Part shown: piece after piece, positions 1-53,623 of the stretch
Layout of the letters: each line of letters begins with the position of its first letter
Numbering within the stretch: position 1 is the stretch's first letter
IMG/VR virus record: IMGVR_UViG_3300021387_003647
DNA: 64,000 nucleotides
Reading direction: 5' to 3' (one strand)
Source: an uncultured virus (IMG/VR IMGVR_UViG_3300021387_003647)
Lineage: Duplodnaviria > Heunggongvirae > Uroviricota > Caudoviricetes
Position numbers and translations under genes: made by a program
The notes under the pieces: generated by a model
Told to the model about the DNA's origin: nothing
The model's input: the letters and a program-made list of their open reading frames with translations, nothing else
Database searches by the model: none

Positions 1-2510
1 CAGGATAGTCTTACTCTACATTAAGTAATGCATTAGATGCAATACCACAAGCAAAACAGAAAGGAGGAATGACTATTCGATATGTACAGACTAATGACAA
101 TAAGTATATGCAGTGGAGGCTGATGGCTGCTTCTTTCAGTACTACCGAGAGTGATTGGCAGAGTGAAAATACTGAAGATATACCTACAACTGGAAGTAAT
201 AGTCCTATATCAAGCGGTGGGGTAAGAAAACTTGTATTAAGAATAAAAGGAATTGGAACATCAGGCTCTTCTGTTGGTGCAACTAATGTAGGTGATTATT
301 TCTTCCATAGTACACAAAATACTCTGAAAATAGTCACATCTACATCGCCTTATGGTACAGAAGCAGTAGAACAAATAGTTGGTGCTATCTATATAACCGA
401 TGATAACTACGTTTATACATGGGATGGCACAAGTCTTAATCCAGTAAAAGACAAGACAGAAAGAGAGAGGGCTTTGACTGCTGAAAAAGAGTTGAATGAT
501 AAGTTAATTAAATTAGTTGGTATGGGTACAAGCGGTGCAGGTGCGGGGGTAACAACTATTGGAGATTGCTTTTATCATACTACTCAAAAACAAATCAAGC
601 GATTAGTAAGTAGCACACCGAGTAATCCAGGTTGGGAGATTGTTCCTTTCATTGCTGGTGCAATATATACTTGTAAAGGGCATCTTTATGTATGGGATAG
701 CACTAAAGAAGAACTGGTCAATGAAGATGTTAATGACCTAAAAAAGCATCTTGCAAGTATTGCCACCCAGTCTTTGAGTGATATAAAATTTACCACGACT
801 CCTTATAACAAGGTATTGATACCGTTTACATTTGTTAATGGTCACGAGTATGTCGTGAGAGTTGTCTATCCAAGCGGAGCTACTGACAAAACCTACTTGC
901 AAGTTGCAAACTCAGAAGGCACTGCGCTTATTAATAATATTGGTACAGGCACTGCTACAAGAGATGTTAATTTTGTATGCAATGTAGATAATGGTGTGAA
1001 TTTAGGAATCATTAACGTCACAGCAGCATCTACAGATACATTTACCGTTATAATCAATGATTTGAATAGTGGTCTTTTTCAGGCATTGTATGTGAAATTG
1101 CAGAATGAGATAGACATCATTAATGCTTTTATGCACGATGCAGAAACTGATATAGAGTTTGATTATTCAAGCACACCTGTTGGTACTCAATATTCGAGAA
1201 TAGAATACCTGTTTAATTTTGTAGAAGGGCATCCATATAGAGTAGAAGTAGTTTGTCCAAGTAATACAAACCGAAGTTATTTCCAAGTTAGAGGTGCTGA
1301 TAGTGCTTTGATTAACTTCCTTAGTATTGGATATGGTAGCAGAACATTCGATTTTATATGTAATGTTTCTGGAGGTGTTTCTTTTGCAATGGTAGTTGCT
1401 GAGGTTCTTGTACAGGAAACTTATCAAGTTAAACTGATTAGCTTAGGAACTGTTGACAGAGTTCTTCCTGCCAAGCAGAACGAGGATTTTATGAATTTCT
1501 CGCAACAGTTTGATATGTTGCCTCTGTATCACAAGAAAGCAATTAATGACTACATGAATGTCTTGGGTCAGAATGTTACAAAAGATATATTTGCTTTCAC
1601 ATTTATCACTGATACTCACATGCGTGATACTTACAATGAGAAAGTTGGAGGAGTTCACGGTCTTATGTGTGTCAATGAAGTTGTTAAGACTGGACTTCTT
1701 GATTTGAATGTACTTGGTGGGGACTACGCTGATACCAAGGAAAGTGGGGCACAGATTCCTTTAACGGATTTCATGTCAAGCATGAACAGTGTCAACAGAT
1801 TAACCACGGGTAACAAGTTTGAGCGTTTGGCATTAAGAGGAAACCATGAACTGAAAGACCTTATATCAAAAGATTTATATTACAAATGGGCAATATCAGG
1901 ATTCCATAATACTGATATTGTATATAATGCAAGTGACCCTTATGGATATTATGGTTATATTGATTATGCGCATTTGAAAATTAGAGTCATTTTCCTTGAT
2001 ACTTCTCTACTGAATTATAGAGGGGGCAGTACAGATGAGCAACTTGATTGGCTAATCAATACAGCATTGGATTTTTCAAGCATTTCAGATTATACTGCTA
2101 TATTCCTTGCACATGAGGCTCTTTATCCTTTCTACTATGCAGAACAGTATGCTTCTAATGATTGGGGAACAAAACCAGCATATAGGCAACTGTTAAGTGC
2201 TTTTCATCGTGGTTCTTCTGTTACTATCAATGGTAATACTATAGACTTTACAAGTCAAGGTGGAATACCAATGGTGTATATCGCAGGTCATGGGCATGTA
2301 GATATGTCTTATATCAATAGTGAGAACGATATGGATTTCCTCACTATTCTGACAAAGGATTCCAGTACTGCAAGAGATGCTGACTTACAAGCTAATATTG
2401 GAACTGTGAAAGAATGTGTATTTGACACATATCTGATTGATGCTTGGAACCAAACCATAGTTACAAAACGATATGGATATGGTGAAGATAGGAGCTTTAC
2501 TTTCGACTAA
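1..2510 (+). CDS. 5'-truncated modular protein: shared N-terminal module, internal repeats and C-terminal calcineurin-like metallophosphoesterase (putative virion/tail-associated enzyme)
   Basis: Frame is open to the window edge if TAG at 6-8 is read through. N-terminus (xSYSTLSNALDAIPQAKQKGGMTIRYV..DNKYMQWRLM) matches the paralogs at 19324 and 21446. Motifs DTH, GGD, GNHE, AHE, GHGH. Confidence 0.75.
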
Positions 2511-5568: not shown

Positions 5569-6708
5569 TTATTTCTTCTTGTTATGATAGTCGCGGATGT
5601 CTTCCAGTGCAGCAGTTTCGTCAACATTCAGTGACTTCGGCAATTGATAATTTATCTCGATGATGTAGTTGCCGGTAGTCTCGCGGCCCCAGTTGTCCTG
5701 GACAGTCAAGCCCTTGTAGCGCAGCGACAGCCGCTTGCCGGGAGGTGTCAGTTTCGAGATGTTCACCGCCATCTCCTGACCGCTGGGCAGTTTCAATTGA
5801 TACTTCGTACCCAACAGACAGTCTTCGTAGGGAATGTAAATCTTCTCGATGACATCGGCACCGCGCACTTCATAGCGACTAGTATCGAAGTCGTACTGCG
5901 CAATGACAATCAGTTTGCCGCTGGGGTCTCCGGCTTTCTTCGCCTCACAGCCCTCTGCTTCGTAGATGATGTACTGTCCGTCCTGTACTCCCTGTGGGAA
6001 CATCACCGTCTTCTCGAACTCCTTGGTGACAAATCCCGTACCGTGACAGTGGTTACACGTCTTCTCGACGATATATCCCTCACCGTGACAACGGGAACAT
6101 ACGTGACTCTGCTGCATAATGCCGAACGCTGTGCGCTGCACAGTCGTCTCCTAGCCAGTACCGTGACATACGGGACACTGTTTCCGCCCGCTACCGCCGT
6201 CACCGTGACACTCCGGACAGCGCACTTCCTTCTTATACTTAATCTTACGGGGGACGGGATTGAACAGTTCCTCGATACCCACCTTCAGGCGTATCTGCAA
6301 GTCTTTGCCCGGAATAACTGTGCGTGTCTGACGGCCGCGTCCGCTTCCAAACCCGCCGAAGCCTCCAAACCCGCCGAACATACTGGCAATGTCGTCGAAC
6401 GGACTTCCTGCACCGAACCCGTCGAAGCCGCCGCCGTGCTCAGCACCGTCGATGGTTCCGGTCAGGTCATAACGCTCACGCTTCTCCGGGTCACTCAATA
6501 TAGAGTATGCCAGGTTTGCTTCCTGAAACTTCTTGCTGGCTTCCTTTTGTTCTGCTTCCGGCTTGTCTGAATTACGGTCCGGATGATATTTCAGCGACAA
6601 CTTGCGGAAAGCCTTCTTAATCTCTTCGGGAGTGGCATCTTTCTTCACTCCCAGAATGTCATATAAATTTTTCTCTTCCATTTTTCTGTTAAAGTCTTTT
6701 TTATCCAT
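5569..6708 (-). CDS. dnaJ: DnaJ/Hsp40 chaperone (joined through in-frame TAG at 6151-6153)
   Basis: J domain with HPD, G/F-rich linker, four CxxCxGxG repeats spanning the TAG, C-terminal domain. Confidence 0.92.
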
Positions 6709-13285: not shown

Positions 13286-14614
13286 GTCAAAACTTGCACA
13301 TAGTTTAACATTGTGCTTTATTGACTTCTTGCTTCACAGAACCACTGCTTTTTAGCAAATCATCATTTCTGATGATTGGTTCATCCACAGTTGGGTTCTC
13401 CACAAGCTTGGATTCGGGTGTACTGCACCCTATTATTCTTAAACATTCGTCAAGTATATTACAAGCGGCATTGTAGTCCCGGCTGATGATTTGCCCGCAC
13501 TGCGGGCAAACCCACTCTCGGTCTTTCAATGTCAATTGCTTGTTGACATAGCCGCAATGATTACATATTTTACTTGACGGGTAGAATCTGTCAACGAATA
13601 CTATCTTTCTATTGTACCATTTTGCCTTGTATTCAAGCATACGTCTAAATTCACCGAAGTTCATCTCTAATATACTCTCTGCAAGTTTATGGTTTCGTGA
13701 CATACCTTTCACATTCAAATCCTCCATACATATGACTTGGTTTTCGTCAATGAGTGAATTACTTATACTGTGAAGATAGTATTGTTTTCTATCATCTATT
13801 TTCTTATATAACTTAGCAAGTCTGATTCTTGCCTTGTTTCTGTTGTTGCTTCCTTTCTGTTTTCTTGATAGTTGCTTTTGACGTTTCTTTATCTTCTTTG
13901 ACTCTGACTTCTTGAAGTGAAGGTTATCAAAGACTTCACCTTCGCTTGTTATAACGAAGTCTTTGATTCCTAAATCTATACCGATAGCAGAATTGCTTTC
14001 TTTGACTTGATGAGTCAGATTTCCGTCAACTAAAATCGAAAGATAATACTCACCACAAGGAAGATGCTTCAATGTTGCCGACTTGATACAGTCTCTATGC
14101 TTCTGAAGATATTCAGCATATTTTCTGCTACATCTAAATTTAACATTCTTGATATTAGCAAGTGAAATATTGTAGTCTGTATAAACGTTGCGTTTAGATA
14201 TTGCACCGAGTTCAAATCTACACGATTGCTTGTTATCGTGTTTAGACTTGAACTTAGGAAAACCAGAACGCTGTTCGAAGAAATTCTTATATGCAGATAA
14301 CATATCTATAAGAGCCTATTTCAATACTCTTGTATTTTGTTCCCTAAGCCAGATGAAGTTGTCGTCTTTCAATAGTTCGTGATGAACGAAATGACCCAAT
14401 GTAGTCAGATTCTCTGATATTTGATTATTCTTGTAAGATTCAATCTTTCTGTTAAGACACTGATTATAGACTACACGATAACAACCAAGCAACTTGTTGA
14501 ACTGAGTTGCTTGTTCCTTGTTAGGGTATAATCTTATCTTGATTGCTCTTAGCATATCTTATTTATCTATGAATTTATGAGATTGTGAACGTTTGTTCAG
14601 ATTTTCGTTTAACT
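13286..14614 (-). mobile_element. IS200/IS605-family TnpB-only (IS1341-like) element
   Basis: Removing this span restores an ORF; left flank TTAAC, element ends TTGAC; no tnpA inside. Confidence 0.7.
13305..14555 (-). CDS. tnpB: RNA-guided endonuclease TnpB (joined through TAG at 14316-14318)
   Basis: HTH_OrfB start (AIKIRLYPN), RuvC GIDLG, EDL, CxxC zinc ribbon, RDYNAA. Confidence 0.92.
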
Positions 14615-15897: not shown

Positions 15898-17278
15898 ATG
15901 AGTAAGAATAATCAGTTTCTCCGTGCAGTTCACACGTTCGTCAGTTATGACGAACAGTTGAACAGTATGACCGTTGATTCTGTTTCGCTCTATGATTAGG
16001 GTTTGTATTTCCTTCGTCAAGAATACTTCAGATGTAGAGACTTAAACTGGTCTGAAATTCCGAAATATCCGTCAAAGTTTGGTTTGTTTGATTTAGTTAA
16101 TCCAACTGATGCATTTCAAAATTCTAAATTAGACATTAATGTAAAGAAAGAGTGTATAAGTTAGGCTTATAATAATTGGTTCAGTTGGATTAAGACAAAG
16201 AAAGACTACAGAGTTCACCCGGAGAAATACAAGAGTGAACCAAAGATGCCAAAATACAAATACAGAAAGAAAACACATAATATAATATCTATAGATAAGA
16301 CCAGATTTAGAGGAAAAGATGCAAATAAAATAACTTTACCGTGCTCTGATTATAAGATTCAATTTAAGGAAAGAATATATTGTGATGCTTAAAATCAAGT
16401 TCATAAATGATTATAAGTTCAAGATTACATTTATATATGATTAGAATCTGAAGTATATTGATGAGTTAAGAGAAAATAAAGTTAAATCACACTCAGTTGT
16501 TTCGAAAGATAAATCGTTGGGAATCGACTTGGGAGTCAAGAATCTGTTGACTTGTGTGACGTTTGGATTAGATAAAGATTCTTCTTTTATAATTCGTGGT
16601 AACGAACTGAAACAAAGAATCAACGAGACAAATAACTCAATGGCTTATCTATAGTCTTGTGTACTAAATTCGAAGAACAGAGAACTGACTAAAGTTTCTC
16701 GAAAAGATAAGTTATTAAAGCAGATAAAACTTTCGAAGAGAATGACTAAAATTCTCTTTGACTACAATAACTATAAATTTAACTATATTCATAACGTAAG
16801 TAGTATGATAAAAGATTATTGCTTAAATAATAATATAGGTAAAGTAGTTATCGGTCATAATGAATTCTGGAAAAATGAATCGAATATGGGAAAAGAAAAC
16901 AATCGTATATTCTGTTCAATTCCCCATTCTGAATTTATATTTAAGTTGAAATATAAACTCGAAGAAGTTGGAATAGAATTCATAGAAGTCGAAGAATCAT
17001 ATACTTCTAAGTGTGACCATTTAGCAAACGAAACTATGGAACACCACAGTTCATATCTAGGAAAGAGAACGAAACGTGGTCTATTCAAATCATCAACTGG
17101 AAAATTGTTGAATGCCGACTGCAACGGTGCAGTGGGAATTTTGCGTAAAGCAAATGTAATACAGAATACTGACTTGGTCAGTTTACTGGATAGAGGTGAC
17201 GTTGTATCACCATGTGTTCTGAATGTTCGAGGATTTAAAAATCCGCAGAATAGACAGAGCACGAAATTAGTAGTATAA
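15898..17278 (+). pseudogene. tnpB: second TnpB/IS605 OrfB-like gene; four in-frame TAGs plus one frameshift near 16334-16390
   Basis: PKMPKYK, GIDLGVKNL, EESYTSKCD, KRGLF, NADCNGA motifs; frame changes between the N- and C-terminal halves. Confidence 0.75.
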
Positions 17279-17560
17279 TTTATAGATTTGATTGGAATTT
17301 ATAAATTTTATGAAAATAGTACAATTACGCAGCAAATATAATCATTATTTCTAACATTGTATTGTTTACTCTCGAATTTTAACATCATTTAATAGTATGA
17401 TACAAATTTTTACAAATACAAGAATGTTTTGAAATATTTAGATTAATTGATGTATTGAAACAAAAAGAGACAGATGTGAAATCTGCCTCTTGTGTTTGAA
17501 TATGTGATGAGTTATTTACATTAAGTGTTTAATTCCCTTGTCTATACATTCTCTATTTTA

Positions 17561-18073
17561 TCAATCTAATATAGTAATAACTGCTTCTGGAAAATCAGAA
17601 CTTACAAAAGAAGATACTAATAAATAATTTGCTCCAGTTGGGATTGTTTTTGTTATTGTGTTTATATCTTTATCAGTTATACTAACATTAAACGTTTCAA
17701 TAATAGATGATTCTTGGATATCATAGTATATTGGTTTACTAGGAGAGACTCCCTCGCCCGATAAATTTGGAATATCTAAAAATGATAAATTACCTAAATC
17801 CTGTGCAAATGCGTTGTAGTAAGCATTTTGAATTACATTATTAATTGCAGTAATGCTAATTGTTTTACCTGCTAAAGATGGGTTTAAGTTATAAACAAAT
17901 ATTTTTTCTGTTAAAACAGCAGGATTTGCTGCTTCCATTATTGCTTTTCTATCCTCATAATCTAAAAAAAGAGTTCCAAATCTTCCTACTTTTAGAAGAT
18001 AACTATTGAACAAAACTTTTCCGGCTGAATTTTCAGAAAAATCAGCACCATTAATTACTAATATTTTACTCAT
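17561..18073 (-). CDS. hypothetical protein co-transcribed with the SGNH cassette
   Basis: 170-aa ORF starting 12 bp after the stop at 18086. Confidence 0.65.
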   Translation of the reverse strand: MSKILVINGADFSENSAGKVLFNSYLLKVGRFGTLFLDYEDRKAIMEAANPAVLTEKIFVYNLNPSLAGKTISITAINNVIQNAYYNAFAQDLGNLSFLDIPNLSGEGVSPSKPIYYDIQESSIIETFNVSITDKDINTITKTIPTGANYLLVSSFVSSDFPEAVITILD

Positions 18074-18085
18074 AATTTTAAATAT

Positions 18086-19324
18086 TTAATTTTTAGATAC
18101 AAATTGATTTATATTATTATTTATTGCATTTGTCACCATTTTGGCACCAATAACATTTGGGTGAGTATAATCGTCTAATATTTCGGTATAATTACTACCA
18201 TTTATATTTACTAATTTATTCAAGTCTAAATAAGGAACAGAAAAATAATCACAGCACTTTTTTACAGCCTAACAAAATTCTCTTAATGAATTTGTATTAT
18301 TCATATAAGGAATTGTTATACCGTTAATCATACTATTTAATGGAGTTAAACATATAATTTGAGTATTTGGATATGTCTCTTTTATGTTTTTAAGAAGATA
18401 TTTATAAGCAGCATAAAATGTTGTATTACTATCTATAGCATCAGAAATATTTCCAAGTGTTTTATTATGATACCAATCGTTAATTCCTCCTAAAATAAAA
18501 ATATAATCAGGCGCATAACCAGTTGTTCCTTCTGAAAACAGTTCGTTATAATGTAAACAAATTCTATTTATTATATCTCCTCCACCATAAGCATAAATTC
18601 TATTTATTATAGCATTTTGTTTTTTACATAACCTACCCCACCAAGTCATATCAACACTTGTTATTCCAGCATTGTTTCCTGTATAATAAGGAACATTGCT
18701 ACCTGGATAAGAGTCATAAGTCGTAATAGAATCTCCCATAAATGAGATTCTTTTTCCTTTTAATAAAGAACTTGTAAAATTCTTAACTGTAATATCTCCA
18801 TCTTTAAAATAAACTACTGCATTACCTAATTCATCAGAAATTGCAAAATCATATTCATTTTCAGTAGTGACTATCTTTAATTGATTATCATTTGATTGTG
18901 AACTATCAAAATGTTTGGTTTTAATATCTCCGTTTTTCAATATTAAAATAGCATTTCCACTCTCGTCAGAAATAGCAAGGTCTCCATTATAAGTACCTTC
19001 ATATATTTGAACCTTTTTATCTAATTGTCTAGATACTCCTCCGCTCTTCACCAAGTTCTCTGAACATGCAATAGGTTCATCATCCACTCCTTGCCAGTCA
19101 TTTCCTGAAGTGCTAAATATAGTATTCATCAATCTATACTGCACATACTTATCATTACTGTCTATATATCGAATTGTCATTCCTCCTTTACGTTTTTGAA
19201 TGGGTACTTCATCTAATGCATCACTCAAAGTAAGATATGAATTCCCTGTATATTCGCTTATATCAAATATACTATGTGTGTAATTCGAATCTGAGTTATT
19301 AACTAAAATCTTGTTTACACTCAT
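18086..19324 (-). CDS. modular protein: shared N-terminal module plus SGNH/GDSL esterase (joined through TAG at 18269-18271)
   Basis: GDSIT block I, GGIND block III, and catalytic DYTHPN block V found only after the TAG. Confidence 0.85.
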
Positions 19325-19343
19325 CTTAAAAAATTTTATTGTC

Positions 19344-19380
19344 CGGCCATACTCGTAAATTTTTTAGTGTGCAGGTTTTG
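19344..19380 (-). repeat. left inverted repeat (37 bp), candidate recombination site
   Basis: Reverse complement CAAAACCTGCACACTAAAAAATTTACGAGTATGGCCG matches 21392-21428 at 36/37. Confidence 0.85.
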
Positions 19381-19644
19381 CACTTTATGAGTATTAAAGC
19401 CGTTGTTAATTTTAATCTTTACGTCCGAAACGCGCCCGCCGTCTTTGTTGTGATTTATTCAAGCGGTCCTACCTTCCGGAACGGGTTCTTCTGCCTTCAC
19501 AGAAGAGTGCTCTTCTAAAGAGATATGTGTTACGCAGAACTGCCGCAGCAGTCTCGTGTGTCTGATCAGTCTTACTTCTGTTTCCAGTTGCTGCTTAATG
19601 TCTTTATTTTCTCATTCAATTACCTGAATTTAAATTTGCTATCG

Positions 19645-19798
19645 TATTTATCACTCAATTTCGCAGAAACGAAACAACCGTCAAGTACTGCTATTATATG
19701 AGCAACTTGTTCTATTTATCAAAGCACAAACAACAAATTTTTCGATTTGCTTTGGCTTCTTCTTTCCTATTCTTCCTTAATGATACGAATTATTTATC
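19645..19798 (-). promoter_or_regulatory. three leftward GATAAATA late-promoter motifs inside the invertible segment
   Basis: TATTTATC at 19645, 19713 and 19791. Confidence 0.6.
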
Positions 19799-19931
19799 AC
19801 AACACTAAATCGTCAAAATCAAAAACGCTCTTAAAGTCTAAAAATATATATAAAATCCAAATAAAACTTAAAATATTTGCACGTTACATTAATATATAGT
19901 ATATTTGCAAAAAATTTAAATTCATAGATAT

Positions 19932-21317
19932 ATGAGAAAGAAACAATTATTCAAAACAGATGTGAAGAATGTTCCCGATTTCGAGAATATGACTGACGAG
20001 AAGTTTATGAGCGAACTTCGAGTCTATTCTGCTAAACTTGCTGAAGAGCAAGAAGATGATGTGAATATGTCGTTGACTATTCCGAAAACTGCTGTTGTTG
20101 ACAATACTCTACCTGTTGATAATAATATTACAGATATTAAAGAAGCAGCATATGAATACTTTCTGTCTGTTAGAGCCAGGAAGATAGTCAAAGATGCAAT
20201 CGGAGAAGAAAGTTCATATGACATCAAACGTTTCAAGAGTCAGTTCCCGAACGAAGAAGAACTCATCAGAGAACTTGAGACTACATCGATAACTACTACT
20301 CTGAAACAAAGATTCGGACATCTCCCGGCATCTGGCATTACAGATTTTAAGATGTATGCTAATCCGAAGGATTTCGAGCATTACATAGACTGTTCGAATA
20401 TGAGTGTAGTGGAATGTATTGTTGAGTATATCAAATACAAATCAGCATCTCTGAAAAGAAGCAGTATTATGTGTCATTATCCGTCTATCATATACTATCT
20501 ACTGAAGATTGAATATGAGAATAATATCGTTCTGATGCCGACTGTAATGGGAAATCTGTTTATGACACAGTTCGAGAAGTATCTGAGAATGCATAATCTC
20601 TGTACTAATACGATAATGTCAATGGTCGGTTCTCTGAAGGCTGCACTTAAATGGTCAGCCCTGTATGGTTCAAGATTGTCTATCGACATCAACGGTTATA
20701 AAATAAAAGAGAGTGACAGCAAACCGAAGATTTCACTTACTTATGAAGAGATATGTAAGATATACTATTTCGATTTTGAGAATACGAATATTTCAAGAAC
20801 AAGGAGAAAGACATTCGAGAAAGTCAGAGACCATTTCATTATGTCTTGTTTCTTGGGACAGCGTTTCTCCGATACGATACGTATCACGAAGAGTAATTTC
20901 ATAAACACGACTTACGATACTTTCAAGATTACTCAACAGAAGACTGGAAGTAAGGCAGTGGTATCGTTCAACAAGATTTTCGGAGAGTATCCCGTTATCG
21001 TTCGTGAAATCCTGGAGAAATATGACTATAATGCACCATACACAGGAACAATGAGTACTTTTAACAGTTGCCTTCACGAGATATGCAGATTGGCTGGGTT
21101 GACTGAAGAAGTCAAATATGAAACGAAAGTACAGGGAGTTATCATAGAAAAGACTTACAAGAAGTATGAATTAATAACTTCACACAGTGCCCGCCGTACG
21201 TTCATCACCCAGGCTGTCAGAAGAGGACTGCATACACAGCAAATCAAGAGAGCATCTGGACATACTACTGAGAAGTCATTTGGAAAGTATGTTATCTTCA
21301 ACGATGATGTTGAATAA
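19932..21317 (+). CDS. tyrosine recombinase/invertase
   Basis: Catalytic set R (GQRFSD), K (QQKTG), HSARR, GHT, Y (GKYV); TATATTTG host-type promoter at 19900-19907. Confidence 0.9.
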   Translation: MRKKQLFKTDVKNVPDFENMTDEKFMSELRVYSAKLAEEQEDDVNMSLTIPKTAVVDNTLPVDNNITDIKEAAYEYFLSVRARKIVKDAIGEESSYDIKRFKSQFPNEEELIRELETTSITTTLKQRFGHLPASGITDFKMYANPKDFEHYIDCSNMSVVECIVEYIKYKSASLKRSSIMCHYPSIIYYLLKIEYENNIVLMPTVMGNLFMTQFEKYLRMHNLCTNTIMSMVGSLKAALKWSALYGSRLSIDINGYKIKESDSKPKISLTYEEICKIYYFDFENTNISRTRRKTFEKVRDHFIMSCFLGQRFSDTIRITKSNFINTTYDTFKITQQKTGSKAVVSFNKIFGEYPVIVREILEKYDYNAPYTGTMSTFNSCLHEICRLAGLTEEVKYETKVQGVIIEKTYKKYELITSHSARRTFITQAVRRGLHTQQIKRASGHTTEKSFGKYVIFNDDVE

Positions 21318-21341
21318 ATTTACTTAAATTCTGCTTATTTC

Positions 21342-21379
21342 GAAAGTGCTGAAATTACTTGTTTCAGCACTTTCTTTTT
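21342..21379 (+). terminator. intrinsic terminator after recombinase
   Basis: GAAAGTGCTGAAA..TTTCAGCACTTTC followed by a T tract. Confidence 0.75.
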
Positions 21380-21391
21380 GTCTTCGAACTC

Positions 21392-21428
21392 CAAAACCTG
21401 CACACTAAAAAATTTACAAGTATGGCCG
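21392..21428 (+). repeat. right inverted repeat (37 bp)
   Basis: CAAAACCTGCACACTAAAAAATTTACAAGTATGGCCG. Confidence 0.85.
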
Positions 21429-21445
21429 AATGAATTAAAAAATAA

Positions 21446-24262
21446 ATGAGTGTAAACAAAATTTTAGTTAATAATAATGATTCGAATTACACACATAGTA
21501 TATTCGATATAAGTGAATATACAGGATAGTCTTACTCTACATTGAGTGATGCTCTGAATGATATTCCGCAAGCAAAACGCAAAGGCGGAATGACCGTTCG
21601 TTATGTTAAGGACAATAAGTATGTACAGTACAGACTGATGTCTGACTCATTCAATACTACTGAAGCTAATTGGCAGGGAGTGGCAGATGAAGTTAAAGCT
21701 GGAAGTAAAGGTTTGGTCGATAGTAACGCCATAGTTAAAAATCAGTCGCAATTTATAACACAGACTTATGCTAACAAAACTCTTATATTAGAATTTGGTG
21801 GAATAAACTCAACTACTGGTGAGCCCAATACTTTACAGAAAAGATGTAGGAATAGTTCTCTCCTTTTAGGTAAGTCATCTATTGTGGTTAATAGTGGTTA
21901 TAGAATTGTCAATATATCAGAATATGACAATTTAGGTGATTTTATTCCAGATTCAGGAATATTGTTTGAAGGTGTTGTGACAGCCTATATTTCTACATCA
22001 GAGAACAATATAAAATATACATTCGCCAGATTAGATGACGCTGCAATAGAGCCAAGTGAGTATTCATCTATTATAAGAGCGTTTTCAGACATAACCAGCA
22101 ATATCCCAAGTTATTATGATTACGCAGGCGTTACTGCTGTAGAATTTTATGGAGGAACAAATAAAATAACTATTGAATCAATAATTATAGTTGATAGCAT
22201 AAGGCATTATAGGACAATCACTCAAATCCAACATACCTTTACTTTTGATACACTTTTGAATGCACCACAAGCACTGATATACAACAGATTAACTAAAGAA
22301 GTAAATATTGTCACAAGCAATATATTAGGGGAATACGATGTGCTACTTATCCTTCGTGAAAGTGACGGTAAATATTCTACTGGTGTTTTAATGGGAGAGT
22401 ATGCAAAAAGTGTGGGTCAAACCTACAATAATCCAATACAAAAATTGCTTAAAAACGATTCAAATAAAAAATCTTTAAGTATTGATATTACAGATGGGTT
22501 GCGAAATGTAAATGCTATAAATGGAGAGTTTGAGTCAACTGAAACAAATGGACATTACGCTAATGAAATAGAGTTGGTTGGAGATGAAGTATTAGTAGAA
22601 TTTCCATCTTTTAAGTTTTAGTCAAACAGATTAGGTTATGCCTTCTTAAACCAACAACGTGACTATATCATTGGTTATAAGCTAACTTCCAATACAGGAA
22701 TTAACTATATTAATGCTGATATTTTGCAATCAGCGATAGAAAACGGAGCGAAATATCTTAGATTAAGTCTTAATAATAGAGATATTGATAGCTTCAATAT
22801 ATATCATTTGGATAATAGGCATACTGTAAGAAACGATGTATCAGAATTGTTTACTTTTGGTAATAATGGTACTATAAGAGCTGACGATGGAGTAATATAG
22901 TCTATAAGTTCACAAGTTTTTACCTATTCAAATGCAGTCAACATTGATACCTTCGGCAAATATATTGTAATATTAATGCCAAGATACATTGTTGCATCAA
23001 CAAGTAAACAACATTCTGGAGGTCTTGCATTCTATGACAATCAGGACAATTATATCTCAGGCATAAATATGCCATTTGGTGAAATAGGAATAGAATATGT
23101 ATGTGTAGAAATACCCGCAAATGCATCATATATGAGAACTACCTATTACCAAGATACTTATGATTCATTTAATTATAAAGGAACATTTAGATGCTTTACA
23201 AGTGATTGTGTATCCGCAATTTGTTCACTGATAGAAAAGAATCAAAATAGCGTTTCATACTTCAGTAATACACATAGGTTTACATTCCCGACAAAGATAA
23301 TAGATAAAGCGTTTGTTTGGGATGATAATGTAGTAAATATCAATGAAGAAGAAAAAACAGGAATGGGGGTAATAAGGTTAGCATATAATTACCGTGATTA
23401 TGGAAAACCTACACCTCTAATTTTATATTTTCATGGAACTGGAGGGTTTGATTCATTCAACAATGACGAGTTTATTGATACACAGTTACCCTATATTGAT
23501 TATTTGTGTAAATGCGGATATAATGTTGCTGCAATATATGCTTGGTGCAATGGTTACGATCAAACGAATTTCCCGACACCTTTCTCACTTGGTAATTATG
23601 TCAAAGGATATGAATATATCAAAGCTCATTATAACATTGAACAAGATGGAGTATATGTACTTGGTCGTTCAGCAGGGTGTTATAGTGTCCTAAGTTTAGG
23701 ATACAATGGGGGAATTAAGATTAAAGCTGCTGCCATTCATTCTGGTGCAACTGGACTAATTGCAAGAGCAAATAGTTCATATCAAACCTACTTAAAAAAG
23801 TTTGTGTTTGATAATGATGTTAATTATGAGTTCACTGCACAGTATTTAAATGATAATTTTGAAAAATATTCCTCATACGAGAATATACTACTTGGTGTAT
23901 CCGAATTAGATAAACAAAAAATGATTAATGCTACTATACAACGAGACGTTTCTATACTTGGAACACATAAGAGGTATCAACCCTTTCCATCAAAGATATG
24001 GGCAGCAAGCGATGATACTTCTATTAATTATCAAAATCTTGTTGATTATGCCAAGTCTGTTGCATTAAGTGGTGGGTTATGCGAGTTTAGAAGGATGCCA
24101 TCAAACTATACTGATGATATTGTAACAATCCCAAATGCACATCATATTACAGATACACATGGTCCTTCTATAAATTCAGTAGTCACTAAATTGGGATTTA
24201 CAGTTGAAAATATACCAGTAGGATATTATGAGACAATAGAGTTCTTTGAAAGATTTGGATAA
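21446..24262 (+). CDS. 938-aa modular protein: shared N-terminal module plus C-terminal alpha/beta hydrolase (three in-frame TAGs)
   Basis: Starts MSVNKILVNN like 19324; only TAG stops (21527, 22619, 22898) in frame; PLILYFHGTGG and GRSAG motifs. Confidence 0.82.
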
Positions 24263-24309
24263 TAGTATATAATTCTTACAAAAAGTATGTACATAACATT
24301 CACAAAAAA

Positions 24310-24341
24310 AGAAGCAGAGATGCGATGTTCTCTGCTTCTTT
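24310..24341. terminator. bidirectional terminator
   Basis: AGAAGCAGAGA..TCTCTGCTTCT between convergent genes. Confidence 0.65.
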
Positions 24342-24361
24342 GAAAAATGAAAATAAGTTTA

Positions 24362-24592
24362 TTACGAAGTTTTGTGATATGTTGTTGTGTTGAAAGCGAA
24401 GAGGATTCGCAGTAGCACTATCAGTCCGTACATTTCCCAGAATGTCAAGACGGGTGCTCCGAATTTAGGGATGATGATAATCATCCAGAGCCATTGTGCA
24501 AAGCCGGCTAGTATCAGGCTGATGATAAGTGCAGCAACCAATGCTGACAAGCAGCCCATTATGATTTGTTCTCCAATATTACTCATAGTCAA
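24362..24592 (-). CDS. small membrane protein
   Basis: Two hydrophobic helices; LTFWEMYGL. Confidence 0.6.
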   Translation of the reverse strand: MTMSNIGEQIIMGCLSALVAALIISLILAGFAQWLWMIIIIPKFGAPVLTFWEMYGLIVLLRILFAFNTTTYHKTS

Positions 24593-24595
24593 TTA

Positions 24596-24865
24596 TTATT
24601 TTGTTACTCCGGTTTCACTGGAACTATTTTCATTAACAGTCTCTTCAGCATTCATACTCATAATAGAAGCATCTCCGGGCATGAACGGTTTGTTTGCGGG
24701 AACAGTCTCTGCTTTGCTTATCGAATAAGCAATCCACAATACTGTTGCTCCGGCCAGTAATCCGAATACAACTGGATAACTTGATGCTAACCATATCAAG
24801 AATCCCAAGTAGCAAAGGCTCACTATCAATATCAGCGGCCAATAATTTTTACATTTTTTACTCAT
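24596..24865 (-). CDS. small membrane protein
   Basis: Two hydrophobic helices; operon packing. Confidence 0.6.
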   Translation of the reverse strand: MSKKCKNYWPLILIVSLCYLGFLIWLASSYPVVFGLLAGATVLWIAYSISKAETVPANKPFMPGDASIMSMNAEETVNENSSSETGVTK

Positions 24866-25085
24866 AGTTGTGTAATGTTTCGTTAAGTCCTCGTATTACT
24901 TTCAGTTCATTCACCAGAGATTCGGGAATGTCGTTGATTTTGATGTACTGGTTGTCATAATCAGACCAGATACACGTACATTCCACTTTCGACAGCAGAT
25001 AGATGACTCGGTCGAGTGTCTCTACGGGAATGTTCACCGACTTTCCCGTTTTGTTCTTTTTCAGTTGTGACAGTTTGAATTCCAT
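24858..25085 (-). CDS. hypothetical protein
   Basis: ATG start MEFKLSQ in ORF 24858..25178. Confidence 0.5.
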   Translation of the reverse strand: MEFKLSQLKKNKTGKSVNIPVETLDRVIYLLSKVECTCIWSDYDNQYIKINDIPESLVNELKVIRGLNETLHNYE

Positions 25086-33756: not shown

Positions 33757-34833
33757 TTATGCAATCAACGGATTCACCATCATCGGTTTTATGAGCATCT
33801 CGCGGAGTTTGTCTGTATAGATGTTGATATGCTATATAATCTCTTCATCGGTGGGAGATATATTCAAATTTGTTAGATTGTCTAGTTCATCTATTACTTC
33901 CTTATCAAAGAAAAGACGAAGGGTCTTGAGGATAGAATATCTTGAATTTGTGTTGACATACTAGATAAACTGCGGACCGTATTCAAGAAACTGGTCGACA
34001 TTCCCGAAGATAAAATCACGCAAATAACCACAAATACACATATTTCGGAACGCATAATGGATAAGAGTCTGTTTGATGAAGTGCTCATATATATTCTTGG
34101 AATAGACAGTAAAATCACACGATATATCATGGAGATAAGTAACACCCTTTACATTAACCGGGAAACTACGCATCCCGTTCTTGACTGGTAATGCGTGATA
34201 CGAACGCTGAACAATTCGCTTGAACACTCTCGGCAACAGCCAAGCCTGGAATCCGGAATAGATGTTAATATGCTTAGCATCCGGGTCAACTATCGCACTG
34301 ACAATCTCGTAGATTCTCTCAACTTCCGGTTCGTAAGAGCCGTTGCCGTCAGCATCGGTCAGCATCGAGACAACTCTCCGACTCATCGGATCCGTTGTTG
34401 CCTGTTGAGTGCCGGCAATCCATTTCGGACTCATCACTGTATAAGACACAGAACCGTAGAGAAGATTGTTTAATGTCAGAATGAACGACATCACACTGCA
34501 ATAAGTGCGGCGGTTGAAGTTCACGTATAGATTCACCATACTCTCGTTAATAGAGACGTGTTCTGGATAGAACTCTATCGCATCTTCCAGTTCCCGTTCT
34601 GAACCGGATGTCAGCCAGTCATCAACATACTGATACATATCAACATAGTGTAGAATCTTCTTAGTCAGTTTCAGATTCGGCTAGTTGAGTTTGACAACAG
34701 TGTTGTCCCACATAGCAATGCGAAGGTCCCACTCTGCGGGAATCACTTCCCTGCTGCCGACAACATTCTAAGCATCCTGTTGCTCGATGTCGTCGGCACT
34801 GATACGGTCCAGATAATCTTCAAACAGTTTCAT
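33757..34833 (-). CDS. hypothetical protein, 'EDY(F/L)D' family (four in-frame TAGs)
   Basis: MKLFEDYLDR start; continuous to TAA at 33757 if TAG is read. Confidence 0.65.
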
Positions 34834-43370: not shown

Positions 43371-44684
43371 TTATAATTCCGTTTCCAGCAACCGTTGTAT
43401 ATACTCATTATCGCTATATACACTGCTTGCAATCTTCGTGATATGTCCGTTATTCAACGGGAAAGCCATATAACAACTGAATTCTTTTTGGTTGGGAATA
43501 AAACTTCCGACACCCACTTCACGATATCTGAACTGTACCAGCCGATTTGATTCTACATATTTTTTTGTATCAGAATTCTTTACGGCAACTGGTCTGGCTC
43601 GACAAGACCGAATATACTTGCTTCGAATTCTTTTGTCGCGTAGTTCATAACGAGCATTGCTTCCTCGAGTCTCAGCAGTCTTATTACCGAGTCCGTTCAC
43701 TTTTACATCGCAACGCACACTGATGCATACAGAGAACTATTGCAGGAACTGTACGGGGATATTATCCATCACGCAACCTTTGATGCAACCGCCTAATATC
43801 TTGTAATCTATATCGTGAGCATCTTTGTTTACAGGGCTTGCATTTACACGAATCAGCAACTGGTCTTCTGCTAACCAGTTCCAGTCGATAGGAGTCAGTA
43901 GAATATCATCTATCTGCTTGGCTTCTTGCATCGCTATGTTCATAATACGAGTCAGGTTCACACTGTTCTTCAGCCAACTCACTATGTTCAACATCCGTTG
44001 AGACTTCTCTTTAAAATCATAAATCAGTTTATAGATTTCATCGAAGTCGTAATGGGTATCGTAGAATTCAGCGCCGACAATCTCTCCTTCTTTGTCGTCG
44101 CGAAAGAAAAACAACTTACCGGTATCATCTGGATGGTCCGGAATCGTGGTCTGCAATTTCTCCATCAGTTCCGAGAACTGTGCAACGAACTCATCTTCGC
44201 TGACTTTCAGCTATGGTGTCCAGCGAATCGTATATTCTTCTTTAATGTCTGGGAATACAGCCATCGAGTGATAACCGTATTTTTCTTTGTGAATATTACG
44301 GATAGATGCATCCTCGGGAAGTTCCAGTATCTCTTCACGAGTCAAACGGATAGAGTCCAACTGTTCGTTATGTTCTCCTCGAATATCTGTTATCAACAGT
44401 TCCTGGACTTTTGCCTGTAATACCAGTGGGCTCATCGATAGGATTCTCTCTATTAACTTCAGTTTCGTCTTCGGATTTGCCTTGCCGACAGTATATACAC
44501 TATGAATCTGCAACTGCAAAGCCATTACTTGCGGACCGGCAATTTCTTCTGCATTCAGTCCTTCAGCACTGACAAGGTCATCATCTTCGTCGCCTTCGAA
44601 GTTGTCGAAGTAGTCTTCGTTAATCTCCCGCCCGGAGAACATCTTCGTATAGTCTTCTGTCTTATGTCTGCGTTTAATTTCCAT
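43371..44684 (-). CDS. hypothetical protein, 'EDYFD' family (TAGs at 44211 and 43737)
   Basis: Three same-frame ORFs separated only by TAG. Confidence 0.7.
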
Positions 44685-45432
44685 ATAGCGGGTACTTCTC
44701 CTTTCCGTCATAATATCTTTTAGTGTAGAATTCTTTCACTTCTTCAGCCCAGTCTGTTCCCGGTTCTGTCGGCAACAAATGCTCACAGAATACTCTCATG
44801 ATGTTAATAAATTCTGTCCGGTCTTTATGTTTATCTTTCCAAATCTCTTCCCACATCACACCATATACCCAATCAGTCATCGCAGAATTTTCAGTCCCAC
44901 CAACAGATACTCGACTAATAAAGTGTGCTGTTGCATTTGGAATCTGTGAAGGAACTTTTATATTAAATACTGCTGTCAATAAACGATGAACTTCTCCAAC
45001 CGTTTTCATATTTGAAACACAATCCAATCTTAATGTGAAATAATCACTAATCCATTCTTTAATATATGACAAATCACTGTTTCCGAAATGATTAAAGTTG
45101 ATACGCTTTACTTCTGGTAAACCTTCATCATCTTCCTTTGTATTTTCTTCTTCGTAAGAAGGATATATCGGTTCAGATGGAGTTATTACATCTCCACTCA
45201 TCTTCAGAATATAATTCAATCGCTTAATGAACTGTTTGGATATTCGTGCCACTTCGCTCGCAGTCATCAAGGGATGGACAATACTAAAGTCAAAATCCAG
45301 ATGCAATGTCGGCTTGGGACGATTCAATGCTTCAGCATCATCTTCCAACTCTTTCTCCACATCTATATCCGGAGCCAGATCATCAACGTGGTCGAAGTAA
45401 TCTTCGTCTATTCTTTTATATTTGCGAATCAT
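44674..45432 (-). CDS. hypothetical protein, 'EDYFD' family
   Basis: MIRKYKRIDEDYFD; GATAAATA at 45456-45463. Confidence 0.7.
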   Translation of the reverse strand: MIRKYKRIDEDYFDHVDDLAPDIDVEKELEDDAEALNRPKPTLHLDFDFSIVHPLMTASEVARISKQFIKRLNYILKMSGDVITPSEPIYPSYEEENTKEDDEGLPEVKRINFNHFGNSDLSYIKEWISDYFTLRLDCVSNMKTVGEVHRLLTAVFNIKVPSQIPNATAHFISRVSVGGTENSAMTDWVYGVMWEEIWKDKHKDRTEFINIMRVFCEHLLPTEPGTDWAEEVKEFYTKRYYDGKEKYPLYGN

Positions 45433-51348: not shown

Positions 51349-53454
51349 TTAGAAATAGAATTTCAAGTCTGCGAATACACCGGTTCCGGCATTACGGAAC
51401 CAGCGCAACTTGTCGTTTGCACCGACCGCAGCATTATAGTAGTTCGTGCGATTGAAGATGTTGTTTACACGCAGTCCGGCTTCAATCTGTCGCCAGCGAT
51501 AACTTCCTTCGATATTGAATGTCAGATACTCCGGAATGGTGTAGACGTTCTCCAAGTCGATATACATCTTCGTATGATACTGACTGTTCAGTGCTACACG
51601 CCAGTTGCGGGCCTGATAGTTCAATTCGTTATTGAACACGAAAGCGGGTGTCAGAATGTGCGTACTCTCTCCGTAAGTCTCAGTCTTGATACGGTTTCGG
51701 CCCAATGAAGTATTCAGCACATAGTGAAAATTAGTGAAGAAATTCCAGTCAACCGTTGCTTCTGCTCCGTAGCGATATGACTTGTCGGCAGTGTCGTGCA
51801 GAGGCAGTCCGTTCAGTCCGTACTGTCCATTGAGCACTCGCTCGTTGCGGAAGTTCATATAATACAGGTTGACGTTTGCTTTGATACGGTTCATCGATGT
51901 CTCGTAACCCAACTCCACATCATAAGAACGTTCTGCCTTGTTGGTTGTCAGGTCCCCGACATAGTACTCATTACCGCCGAACATATCCGTGCGAGTCGGT
52001 TCACGACTTACTTCAGCATAGCGCACATACAGTTTGTTCTGTGGGTCGATATTATACGAAATCCCAAGACCGTAATTGATGAAATCCCAACGGGTATCAT
52101 ATCTGCCGGAACCAAACGTCATCAGCGGATTCATATGGTCGATGTAGTCGAAGTCCACGTGACGATACTGGATGTTCCCGTTGAAGTTGAAGCGGCCCAG
52201 TGTGTAACTGACGGCAGCAAACACTTCAGCATCGTTCTTACGGCCGGTGTTGTCATAGTACTCGCTTGGATCCACATTACGGAAATGCTCCTTCACCCGG
52301 TCGTTCATAAAGTGTTCGCGCTTATACTTATATACATTCGTACCGACGGTGAAGTTCAGGTCATTGAAGAAGAACTTGGCTGCTGCATTGGCACCATAGA
52401 GATAATGCTCAAGACCGTAGGTATAGAGAATGCCCGTCGGTTGCCAGTCAGTGTCAACCATCTTCCACATATAGTTGTCCAGGTCCATATTGTACCATCC
52501 GTTCTGATATTGCAGGTAAGCAGATGCTGTCAGGAAGATATTCTCGCCGACCTTTCCCTTATACTGTATTCTGTTCACGGTCTGGAACCACTCGTCGATG
52601 TCGTCAGCTACATTGCCGTTAGCATGTTTGTTCTGGGCCAGTTCGTCCATCGTAGAACCAATCCATCCCTGACAGTTGCGATGACGGCCGTTCAGCGACA
52701 ACACATCGATGCTGTGATTATCGTTGAACCAATAACCGTACTTCAACGTAAATGCCTGGCTGTTGTTGAACGAGTTGTCCTTGAATCCGTCGGTCTGCTG
52801 TTGTGTAGCCTTGACATGGAATGCGTGATGTTTGCCTAACAGTCCGGAATTGTATATCAGCGAAGTCTTGTATGTATTCCACGAACCGCCGCCGACATAT
52901 GCATATGATATCGTGTCGGTCAACAGATTCACCGACTCCATATTGATTGAACCGCCACTGCTGGCCGTGCCGTTGTTGATTGCTGAAGAACCGCGTTCTA
53001 CCTTGATACTATGCATACTCGACATCAGGTCCGGTGAGTTGGCGAAGTATGTGCCGTAATCTTCCGATTCGTTCCAGGGCATACCGTCCAGTGTAACATT
53101 GATGCGAGTCTGGTCAAGTCCGCGAATACGGAAATAGCCGTATCCGAACTCCGTACCATTATCGTTCATCGAGAAAACATTCGGCATCTTCGCAAACAAG
53201 TGGGAAGGTTCCTGACCGTAGTTCTCAGTGATAAGCGTCTTGTTGTCGATGAGATAGCCGACATTGACGTTGTTGCGATACAGCGAAGTAACGGTCACTT
53301 CGTCCAGACAGATGGTATCGCTGACTGTAGCATCGGGGGAAATCTCCGCTGTAGTTGTTACATACTTAGCAGACTTGCTGCCGTTCCTGTTCTCAGACTG
53401 TGCACCCAGAGCGATGATGCTCATCAGTGCAATCATAAAAATCTTTTTGTTCAT
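51349..53454 (-). CDS. TonB-dependent outer-membrane receptor
   Basis: Signal peptide, LDEVTVT box, plug RIRG..INVTLDGMP, VNNIFN, terminal Phe; TACCTTTG promoter at 53496-53503. Confidence 0.9.
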   Translation of the reverse strand: MNKKIFMIALMSIIALGAQSENRNGSKSAKYVTTTAEISPDATVSDTICLDEVTVTSLYRNNVNVGYLIDNKTLITENYGQEPSHLFAKMPNVFSMNDNGTEFGYGYFRIRGLDQTRINVTLDGMPWNESEDYGTYFANSPDLMSSMHSIKVERGSSAINNGTASSGGSINMESVNLLTDTISYAYVGGGSWNTYKTSLIYNSGLLGKHHAFHVKATQQQTDGFKDNSFNNSQAFTLKYGYWFNDNHSIDVLSLNGRHRNCQGWIGSTMDELAQNKHANGNVADDIDEWFQTVNRIQYKGKVGENIFLTASAYLQYQNGWYNMDLDNYMWKMVDTDWQPTGILYTYGLEHYLYGANAAAKFFFNDLNFTVGTNVYKYKREHFMNDRVKEHFRNVDPSEYYDNTGRKNDAEVFAAVSYTLGRFNFNGNIQYRHVDFDYIDHMNPLMTFGSGRYDTRWDFINYGLGISYNIDPQNKLYVRYAEVSREPTRTDMFGGNEYYVGDLTTNKAERSYDVELGYETSMNRIKANVNLYYMNFRNERVLNGQYGLNGLPLHDTADKSYRYGAEATVDWNFFTNFHYVLNTSLGRNRIKTETYGESTHILTPAFVFNNELNYQARNWRVALNSQYHTKMYIDLENVYTIPEYLTFNIEGSYRWRQIEAGLRVNNIFNRTNYYNAAVGANDKLRWFRNAGTGVFADLKFYF

Positions 53455-53623
53455 AATAAATGTTTGTTTAAACGTTAATGAATTAATTTCGCTGACAAAG
53501 GTAAGCATTATTTCTGAACCGTGCAAACTTTTTGCCGGAAAACTTTCATTTGTTAGGAATAATTAGGAAATGGAACATAAAAAGAGCCCAGCCATTGCTG
53601 ACTGAGCCCCAAGAAAAGAAATG

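Follow-up and report, generated by a model that had tools for sequence, protein, structure and literature searches.

What is a tyrosine recombinase doing between inverted repeats that stand directly ahead of two divergent genes with the same beginning? The question is raised by the uncultured virus record IMGVR_UViG_3300021387_003647 (IMG/VR), of which we analysed a stretch of 64,000 nucleotides (nt), referred to here as the window. In this stretch two genes, which we call fibre-like for reasons given below, diverge from a segment of about 2.0 kb (19382-21390) that carries the recombinase gene; as the initial annotation of this DNA had claimed, both encode products starting with MSVNKILVNN, and they end in different enzyme domains, an SGNH esterase on the left and a probable alpha/beta hydrolase on the right. 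We consider it moderately probable that the genome, which is phage-like and TAG-recoded, has a promoter-inversion switch here, with promoters and leader in one invertible cassette. We infer that the recombinase acts on the 38-nt repeats at the two ends of this segment and that inversion occurs.

The repeats are distinct elements in their own right. A repeat search of the window returned arms of 42 nt at 93% identity (19344-19385 and 21387-21428), within which pairwise alignment of the gene-proximal regions delimits a core that is identical at 37 of 38 positions (19344-19381 and 21391-21428); the longest identical run common to both arms is 26 nt. The initial annotation had described 37-bp repeats with 36 of 37 positions identical, which is borne out with a slightly longer core, and the distances of 17-19 bp that it gave between repeats and genes, like its placing of the recombinase at 19932-21317, are correct according to the alignment. 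The inner boundary of the core is abrupt, and its outer side is followed by a dissimilar spacer of 17-19 nt before each ATG, past which inverted similarity returns at the ATG and continues into the 5' parts of the coding sequences, in stretches of 159 nt (79%) and 77 nt (70%). Since this island of 37/38 identity has unrelated sequence on its inner side and a diverged spacer on its outer side, it does not look like the residue of a plain duplication of the 5' ends of the two genes. A probe of 27 nt from the core, allowed up to 3 mismatches, found 2 sites in the window against 0 expected from 100 shuffles. As in an inverton, inverted repeats bound a segment with a site-specific recombinase inside; both flanking genes, start codons included, lie outside the repeats, and no coding cassette lies in the segment.

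The segment is also asymmetric, and on this point the motif scan and the fold prediction agree with the initial annotation, which had reported three motifs facing left, a terminator at the right and no such motif before the right gene. The motif in question, the octamer GATAAATA, is present 15 times in the window (4.33 +/- 1.79 expected; 0 of 100 shuffles reach 15), and for 12 of the 15 copies an ATG found 12-42 nt beyond the first base of the motif opens an open reading frame (ORF) of 96-416 amino acids (aa). Given this enrichment and this placement GATAAATA behaves like the genome's own expression signal, and we regard it as a candidate promoter motif for this phage group. The initial annotation had called it a late-promoter motif, which it may be; it precedes a TnpB gene and other non-structural genes as well. 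A scan for the sigma-70 consensus was unenriched (47 matches against 40.9 +/- 7.5 expected). The only exceptions among the 15 are the three copies in the segment, which are 328-474 nt upstream of the left ATG and have no ORF directly behind them, and in the window scan neither fibre-like gene has a GATAAATA copy of its own. From the terminator that follows the recombinase to the right ATG there are only 72 nt, and these hold the right repeat.

What the three motifs would transcribe before they reach the left repeat is a conserved stretch of about 200 nt, which we call the leader. It is 87% identical between the window and L002, a metagenomic locus of the same layout, and few stretches are as well conserved between the two; its 50-nt bins within 19450-19599 agree at 79-82%, and the bins of the recombinase coding sequence mostly at 0.60-0.74 (range 0.37-0.82). 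The consensus fold of these two sequences is -49 kcal/mol on the minus strand versus -33 kcal/mol on the plus strand, G-U pairs are frequent in the minus-strand fold, in which 4 of the 53 pairs are compensatory, and the fold z-score of the window copy is -2.14. A covariance model built from the two located a third leader in L011 (5340-5552, minus strand; 25.9 bits, rough E 1e-5), and in L019 it found none (best score 11.4 bits, elsewhere in the locus). The simplest reading of these comparisons would be that a conserved RNA element is transcribed here from the minus strand, in the direction of the left repeat; the structure drawn from three sequences is put forward as a proposal. A search of Rfam with the leader gave nothing at E <=1 apart from two chance-level hits, and guide-like complementarity between leader and repeat amounted to A/T-rich 9-10-mers only, which 370 of 500 shuffles equalled. 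The leader is not mentioned in the initial annotation, nor are the TAG recoding and the third paralogue described below. We note, just upstream of the leader, a conserved mini-ORF (ATG AGA AAA/AAG TAA, at about 19616-19605).

If the segment does act as a switch, it would do so as a self-contained cassette, with the recombinase, a host-type promoter and a terminator at one end, and with three tandem phage-type GATAAATA promoters and the leader at the other, directed outward across the repeat. As sequenced, promoters and leader would drive the SGNH-tipped gene and the next ORF, and the alpha/beta-hydrolase-tipped gene would face the terminator. Were the repeats to recombine, the segment would be reversed and the other gene would receive promoters and leader. 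The phage population would then be mixed, consisting of particles (if the products are virion proteins) or of infections equipped with one or the other surface-glycan-modifying enzyme. That a phage might in this way track phase-variable host capsules, as the initial annotation suggested, is speculation.

Contigs of sequencing runs bear on both the orientation and the expression of the locus. Four of 20 runs (X1-X4) were compared as Logan contigs, which drop minority forms. In X1, the probable source run, a contig of 2153 nt (19296-21448) runs in the reference orientation from one unique spacer through the segment into the other; because contigs lose minority forms, this shows only that the reference orientation is the major form there. 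The contig does not break at the repeats, and the identical run of the arms (26 nt) is shorter than a 31-mer; its ends at 19296 and 21448 in our view reflect further copies of the N-terminal coding region present in this sample, where the bins concerned have a depth of 65-131. Five listed "skip" joints, with AT-rich sides of 21-24 letters, were taken as repeats or other organisms and set aside. In X3, a metatranscriptome of the same sample as X1, the five contigs that map to 17000-25000 are all confined to 17487-19738. The ORF at 17561-18073 is covered, as are the left gene and the left repeat, whose outer boundary is bridged with more than 31 letters on both sides; a contig of 340 nt over the leader (19399-19738) abuts the previous one, and the contig farthest to the left stops at 17487, within the terminator predicted at 17465-17491. 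Together they fit one minus-strand transcript that would start upstream of 19738, near the third motif, and pass through leader, repeat and both ORFs, with carry-over of DNA also possible. No X3 contig falls on 19739-25000, which holds the recombinase and the right gene and has the same DNA depth as the left side; we do not count this as evidence. The X3 contig over the left repeat has one extra T in a run of six (19359) that the DNA contigs of the same sample (X1 and X2) lack; strain variation, slippage or faulty assembly could account for it.

A scan of metagenomes with the recombinase alignment gave 35 loci, here numbered with the prefix L, and in six of them (L002, L010, L011, L013, L019 and L021) the recombinase adjoins a gene with the shared N-terminal domain of the window's flanking genes. 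Comparison with related genomes, which the initial annotation had proposed, supports its claim in part. In L002 and L011, whose recombinases are 61% and 54% identical to the window's, the order is kept throughout: fibre-like gene, repeat, leader, GATAAATA copies, recombinase, terminator or hairpin, repeat, second fibre-like gene. L003-L009 do not fit, having no repeats, and L019 fits by half only. The repeat pair of L002 is imperfect, with TGCACAATTTT...TATGGCCG on both sides and a middle of 10 nt that differs between the arms, and the hairpin after its recombinase folds weakly (z-score -1.75) and was not called a terminator; in L011 two exact GATAAATA copies and one variant (GATAAAAT) face the left gene, and the recombinase is followed by a terminator of 15 pairs. 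L019 carries GATAAATA copies at the place that matches the window's. In L002, L010, L013 and L025 the 3' end of the recombinase gene, the hairpin and the right repeat are 94-96% identical, but beyond the outer end of this repeat the sequences are no longer homologous, and three or four different genes follow. The repeat is thus part of the recombinase module and stands at a boundary of recombination. L010 was considered as a flipped form of L002 and rejected, its gene being only 78% identical to the left gene of L002 over 268 nt and its repeat being of the right-arm type. In L006 (4678-9758) the recombinase homologue lies between a C5 DNA methylase, RtcB and a protein with an RF-1 domain, the last of interest for stop-codon recoding.

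The recombinase itself is assigned with scores above the Pfam cut-offs for Phage_integrase (PF00589, 29.5 bits against 27.1) and SAM_5 (PF13102, 24.8 bits against 22.3) and by a match to PHROG 1, integrase, at E 2.9e-13. Residues R311, K337, H418, R421, H444 and Y453 are invariant in 14 aligned sequences, namely the window's and 13 homologues at 39-67% identity. Its profile matched no PDB sequence at E <=0.001, and GTDB genomes hold only three distant relatives, 30-31% identical, all of them integrases of Bacteroidota. The TTTG and TATATTTG boxes ahead of the gene resemble TTTG / TAnnTTTG, which we take to be the Bacteroidota-type host promoter consensus. Directly after the second, -7-like box, a 10-nt A/T-rich stretch on the plus strand (19909-19918) matches the A/T core of the repeats; the match is at chance level by shuffling, and the stretch could be an autoregulatory site. 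A recombinase 99% identical to that of the window (protein cluster P0001) is recorded from a contig 836,250 bases long, and contigs of 271 kb and 353 kb carry further relatives, which hints at very large genomes or host-linked assemblies.

Of the two enzyme-tipped genes, the left one is the better defined. The SGNH esterase that the initial annotation placed at its end is confirmed by Lipase_GDSL_2 (PF13472, 66.1 bits, cut-off 32.9), by GDSL chains of the PDB (E down to 3e-9) and by all four SGNH blocks (GDS, G, GxND and DxxH, present as FMGDS, YGGG, GGIND and DDYTHP). The gene does not reach as far as had been described: the stretch was said to begin at 17561, and the left gene in fact ends at 18086, with 17561-18073 a separate downstream ORF that has no Pfam, PHROG or NCBIfam match. 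A proposed homology of this ORF with the one after the L013 gene was unsupported (E 0.027 over 39 aa). The alpha/beta hydrolase claimed for the end of the right gene is probable rather than certain. Searches of the Atlas agree with it, the ten best hits by features all belonging to one clan (Peptidase_S9/DLH/esterase) and the structure search giving template-modelling scores of 0.54-0.61 by query to S9/DLH/esterase clusters, and the translation contains HGTGG and GRSAG motifs; Pfam Peptidase_S9 (17.5 bits, cut-off 22.6) and a PDB lipase (E 0.0026) fall under their cut-offs. A single-sequence AlphaFold model of this C-terminus was not usable (predicted local distance difference test 33).

The N-terminal domain shared by the flanking proteins spans about 80 aa, and the 5' end of a third paralogue at the edge of the window is nearly identical to that of the right gene. 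Residues 17-81 of the domain were modelled confidently from 7 sequences. In BFVD this model has three matches at E <=0.001, all long proteins of uncultured gut phages with lipase, GDSL, beta-helix or collagen-like parts, and this resemblance makes "fibre-like" a reasonable label; a "Tail fiber protein" of a crAss-like virus follows at E 0.084. Against PDB folds the best Z is 3.4, and the N-termini of tailspikes are at the noise level (Z 2.1-2.4). The match of the left protein to PHROG 5240, "tail fiber", concerns its SGNH part only, and among GenBank phages the protein found two records, over 20% of its length. The flanking proteins may thus be fibres or other virion proteins, a likeness that is weak.

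Under the standard code the right gene would be interrupted three times and the left gene once, and all four of these stops are TAG, both true ends being TAA. Reading TAG as sense lengthens many ORFs of the window, and no long ORF needs TAG as a stop. Two genes in particular are full-length when TAG is sense: that for DnaJ (5569-6708, minus strand), whose J, zinc-finger and C-terminal domains are distributed to either side of a TAG, and one for TnpB (13305-14555, minus strand), which has all three Pfam domains. Because domains continue across TAG in these two proteins, and because the right gene and the third paralogue share a TAG codon, the in-frame TAGs are sense codons and not signs of decay: the window is a TAG-recoded (code 15-like) genome. 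It contains no tRNA gene, and hence no suppressor tRNA within its 64 kb. We read the window as part of a large TAG-recoded element that is putatively a phage or phage-like.

Table 1. Coordinates of the features of the window and layout of the related metagenomic loci.
Feature	Position	Strand	Description
Tyrosine recombinase, 461 aa	19932-21317	+	Assigned by Pfam, PHROG and homologue alignment; zero in-frame TAG
TTTG ... TATATTTG boxes	19874-19907	+	24 nt upstream of recombinase ATG; both boxes conserved in L002
Left inverted repeat	19344-19381		38-nt core (42 nt by repeat search, to 19385); 19 nt from left ATG
Right inverted repeat	21391-21428		38-nt core (42 nt by repeat search, from 21387); 17 nt from right ATG
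Three GATAAATA motifs facing left gene	19645-19652, 19713-19720, 19791-19798	-	Candidate promoters
Conserved structured leader or non-coding RNA (predicted)	19405-19600	-	Inside segment, between motifs and left repeat
Intrinsic terminator between recombinase and right repeat	21342-21379	+	14-pair stem (21342-21374) and T-run; -20.4 kcal/mol, fold z-score -5.89
Left fibre-like gene, 412 aa	18086-19324	-	Shared N-terminal domain, two repeats, C-terminal SGNH esterase; in-frame TAG at 18271; TAA end
ORF without assigned function, 170 aa	17561-18073	-	13 nt downstream of left gene; covered by RNA contigs
Predicted intrinsic terminator ending left operon	17465-17491	-	11-pair stem and T-run
Right fibre-like gene, 938 aa	21446-24262	+	Shared N-terminal domain, long middle, probable C-terminal alpha/beta hydrolase; in-frame TAG at 21527, 22619 and 22898; TAA end
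Third paralogue	3-2510	+	Start cut by window edge; same N-terminal domain, C-terminal metallophosphoesterase; TAG at right gene's codon
GATAAATA copies ahead of 12 ORF starts	2613, 7442, 7586, 12857, 14567, 15886, 40076, 45463, 48467, 48589, 62152, 63750		T-rich bases usually precede
Further TAG-as-sense examples	33757-34833, 43371-44711	-	
L002			Whole layout: left gene of long N-terminal type, repeat pair, leader, two exact GATAAATA and one variant, recombinase, hairpin, right gene with shorter N-terminus
Leader in L002	5429-5640	-	
L011			Repeats of 85-93 nt at 92-94%, extending into two genes starting MILNKIKIND; contig stops just inside right gene
L019, L021			Leader-side half only
L003-L009			Recombinase between C5 DNA methylase and RtcB; no repeats, no fibre-like gene

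Several observations weigh against an invertible segment. No curated invertase or integrase model of NCBIfam fits the recombinase, the sole hit at E <=0.01 being XerA-type with 19.3 bits against a cut-off of 220. Flanking repeats of at least 20 nt (by BLAST) are found in 2 of the 29 sources that have both flanks, namely the window and L011, with 7 further sources lacking a flank, and in L002 the differing middle of the arms could block exchange. The contigs of the four runs list no strand-changing joint, a weak negative since contigs drop rare variants. In L003-L009 the recombinases are 61-62% identical to that of the window, and 80-85% identical to that of L002 in DNA, and the absence of repeats and fibre-like genes around them means that this clade of recombinases is not dedicated to the switch. 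At L019 a second fibre-like gene is missing, as is a repeat 3' of the recombinase. Such observations would suit a static divergent pair, in which the 38-nt element would be a shared cis-regulatory site (a promoter, an operator or an element of the 5' untranslated region), the recombinase would be an integrase or have some other task, and both genes would be expressed with nothing flipping. A static pair would expect contigs in the reference orientation only, close recombinase relatives in unrelated contexts without repeats, and a locus such as L019, where the leader-side half accompanies one fibre-like gene without a partner; it would also suit the near-motif GATAAACT, 13 nt ahead of the ATG of the right gene of L002, and the intactness of both genes, which implies that both must be expressed at some time. 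However, the 38-nt element is absent elsewhere in the 64 kb and lacks GATAAATA, the signal of 12 other genes; the terminator is within 72 nt of the right ATG; the right repeat in L002, L010, L013 and L025 travels with the recombinase module and not with the gene behind it; and a static arrangement leaves unexplained why a single set of leader and promoters for two genes is kept in three divergent loci. We regard the static pair as a possible but rather unlikely explanation. The initial annotation had gone as far as to propose a flipping promoter that leaves the SGNH gene ON and the alpha/beta-hydrolase gene OFF in the present orientation: with this the anatomy, the asymmetry, the relatives and the RNA over the left unit all agree, whereas the flip has as its counterpart in the contigs the reference orientation only.

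Alternatively, the recombinase might act mainly between molecules, exchanging fibre-gene cassettes between related phages, or might mobilise the segment as a cassette that ends in inverted repeats and whose promoters point outward; frequent switching within one molecule would then not be its role. The exact break of homology at the outer end of the right repeat in four loci, with three or four different genes behind it, is what such an exchange would produce, recombinase genes 80-85% identical in DNA do stand in quite different contexts, and many of the relatives' contigs break off at the module or close to it. Yet a site-specific recombinase between inverted sites would bring about inversion anyway, the neighbours in three loci retain a common N-terminal domain and divergent orientation, which looks like a maintained two-way design, and target duplications or empty sites were not found, in a comparison that involved no systematic search for them; we judge this explanation improbable. 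Least probable by far is that the genes are decayed or the assembly chimeric. Four in-frame stops across two genes would suggest as much under the standard code, but this is contradicted by the restriction of the stops to TAG (4 of 4, with true ends of TAA), by the TAGs inside DnaJ and TnpB with Pfam domains continuing across them, by the TAG codon common to the right gene and the third paralogue, by the X1 contigs that reproduce the junctions, and by L002 and L011, which come from other samples and share the arrangement. An extended form of the promoter-inversion switch, which we offer as a long shot, is a shuffler of expression with several targets, in which nested inversions would deliver one promoter-leader cassette to three or more paralogous enzyme-tipped genes, and in which the leader would be a new cis-acting RNA that gates the TAG-containing gene joined to it, timed for instance to a recoded late phase. 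The third paralogue may have a repeat of its own just outside the window.

A promoter-inversion switch of this kind can be compared with several known systems. The H-segment of Salmonella, inverted by the serine invertase Hin, is the flagellar phase switch and turns fljBA ON or OFF from one side only. As there, the recombinase gene in our locus is within the invertible segment and an outward promoter would read across one repeat; unlike there, the enzyme is a tyrosine recombinase, the choice would be between two genes, the genome is that of a phage, and the leader is long and structured. In the sap locus of Campylobacter fetus, promoter inversion depends on RecA, without a dedicated recombinase in the segment. 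The likeness there is one of design, a single outward promoter between opposed homologous genes with conserved 5' ends that chooses a surface protein; sap differs in being bacterial, in encoding S-layer proteins and in its RecA dependence without a segment recombinase. The fimS element of E. coli is a promoter inverted by tyrosine recombinases, FimB and FimE, and to that extent similar, but the recombinase genes are outside its 314-bp segment, its repeats have 9 bp, and it turns a single operon ON or OFF. Invertible promoters (invertons) were reportedly described in Bacteroidales by Jiang et al. in 2019. These resemble our proposed switch in that short inverted repeats delimit the promoter segment that inverts, in that they occur in the phylum of the probable host, and in that tyrosine invertases are among their enzymes; they differ in being chromosomal and mostly ON/OFF, with invertases of the Mpi (serine) or Tsr type, whereas the recombinase of the window matches no NCBIfam invertase model and its genome is phage-like. 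To our knowledge, all known promoter invertons are bacterial.

Phages are known to switch host range by serine invertases that flip coding cassettes, as in Mu and P1, or by diversity-generating retroelements that mutate the tip of the receptor-binding protein. The window's element does not belong to the Gin/Hin/Cin/Pin type, its enzyme being a tyrosine and not a serine recombinase and its segment holding no coding cassettes. In phage Mu (Gin) and P1 (Cin), site-specific inversion alternates host-recognition proteins (PMC9881135, PMC13501310, in the parts drawn on here). In purpose, then, our locus would be alike, as phage inversion that alternates two host-recognition proteins; the invertases described in those parts are serine enzymes, and the segment holds alternative C-terminal cassettes that are joined to a constant N-terminal part, unlike the present case, in which two complete genes are outside the segment and only promoters, leader and recombinase would turn. 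A 2026 report (TPMM) proposes 16 candidate viral invertons from read statistics, some of them near or inside coding sequences (PMC13501310). It resembles our proposal in placing invertons in viral contigs; its worked example is a segment of about 120 bp within a coding sequence, and the portion of the report cited here does not describe a two-gene promoter switch that bears its own recombinase (PMC13501310). Among open-access papers and bioRxiv preprints we found no precedent for a phage promoter-inversion switch between whole fibre genes; precedent elsewhere is possible.

If the switch exists as proposed, a phage-borne promoter inverton with a tyrosine recombinase would represent a third route to phenotypic heterogeneity in phages, one that would pick between complete alternative fibre-like genes for the modification of glycans. 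Its setting, the large uncultivated phages of the gut with recoded stop codons, is one whose biology is almost unknown, and the locus offers objects that are directly testable: a promoter-like motif, a conserved leader RNA without an Rfam family, and a clade of recombinases with defined candidate sites.

As to this setting, the sequencing runs that match the region are from animal gut samples, labelled, beyond the source sample, as bovine and sheep gut; the ruminant-gut habitat rests mostly on small word shares in these runs, of which the sheep-gut run X4 was compared directly. A ruminant-gut bacterium of the Bacteroidota is the probable host. The window has no close relative among GenBank phages by megablast, and protein and DNA-pattern scans of IMG/VR gave no relatives. 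Its other genes encode an NAD-dependent ligase, a radical-SAM enzyme, HD and AAA kinase-like proteins, a NadR-like protein, a TonB-dependent receptor and two TnpB proteins. The two TnpB genes are of the IS605 type, stand beside the locus (13305-14555 on the minus strand, 15898-17278 on the plus strand) and each contain TAG in frame; the second is divided between overlapping frames (15898-16392 and 16382-17278) and may carry a frameshift. The gene for the TonB-dependent receptor (51349-53526, minus strand), with Plug and beta-barrel domains, is unusual cargo for a phage-like recoded genome.

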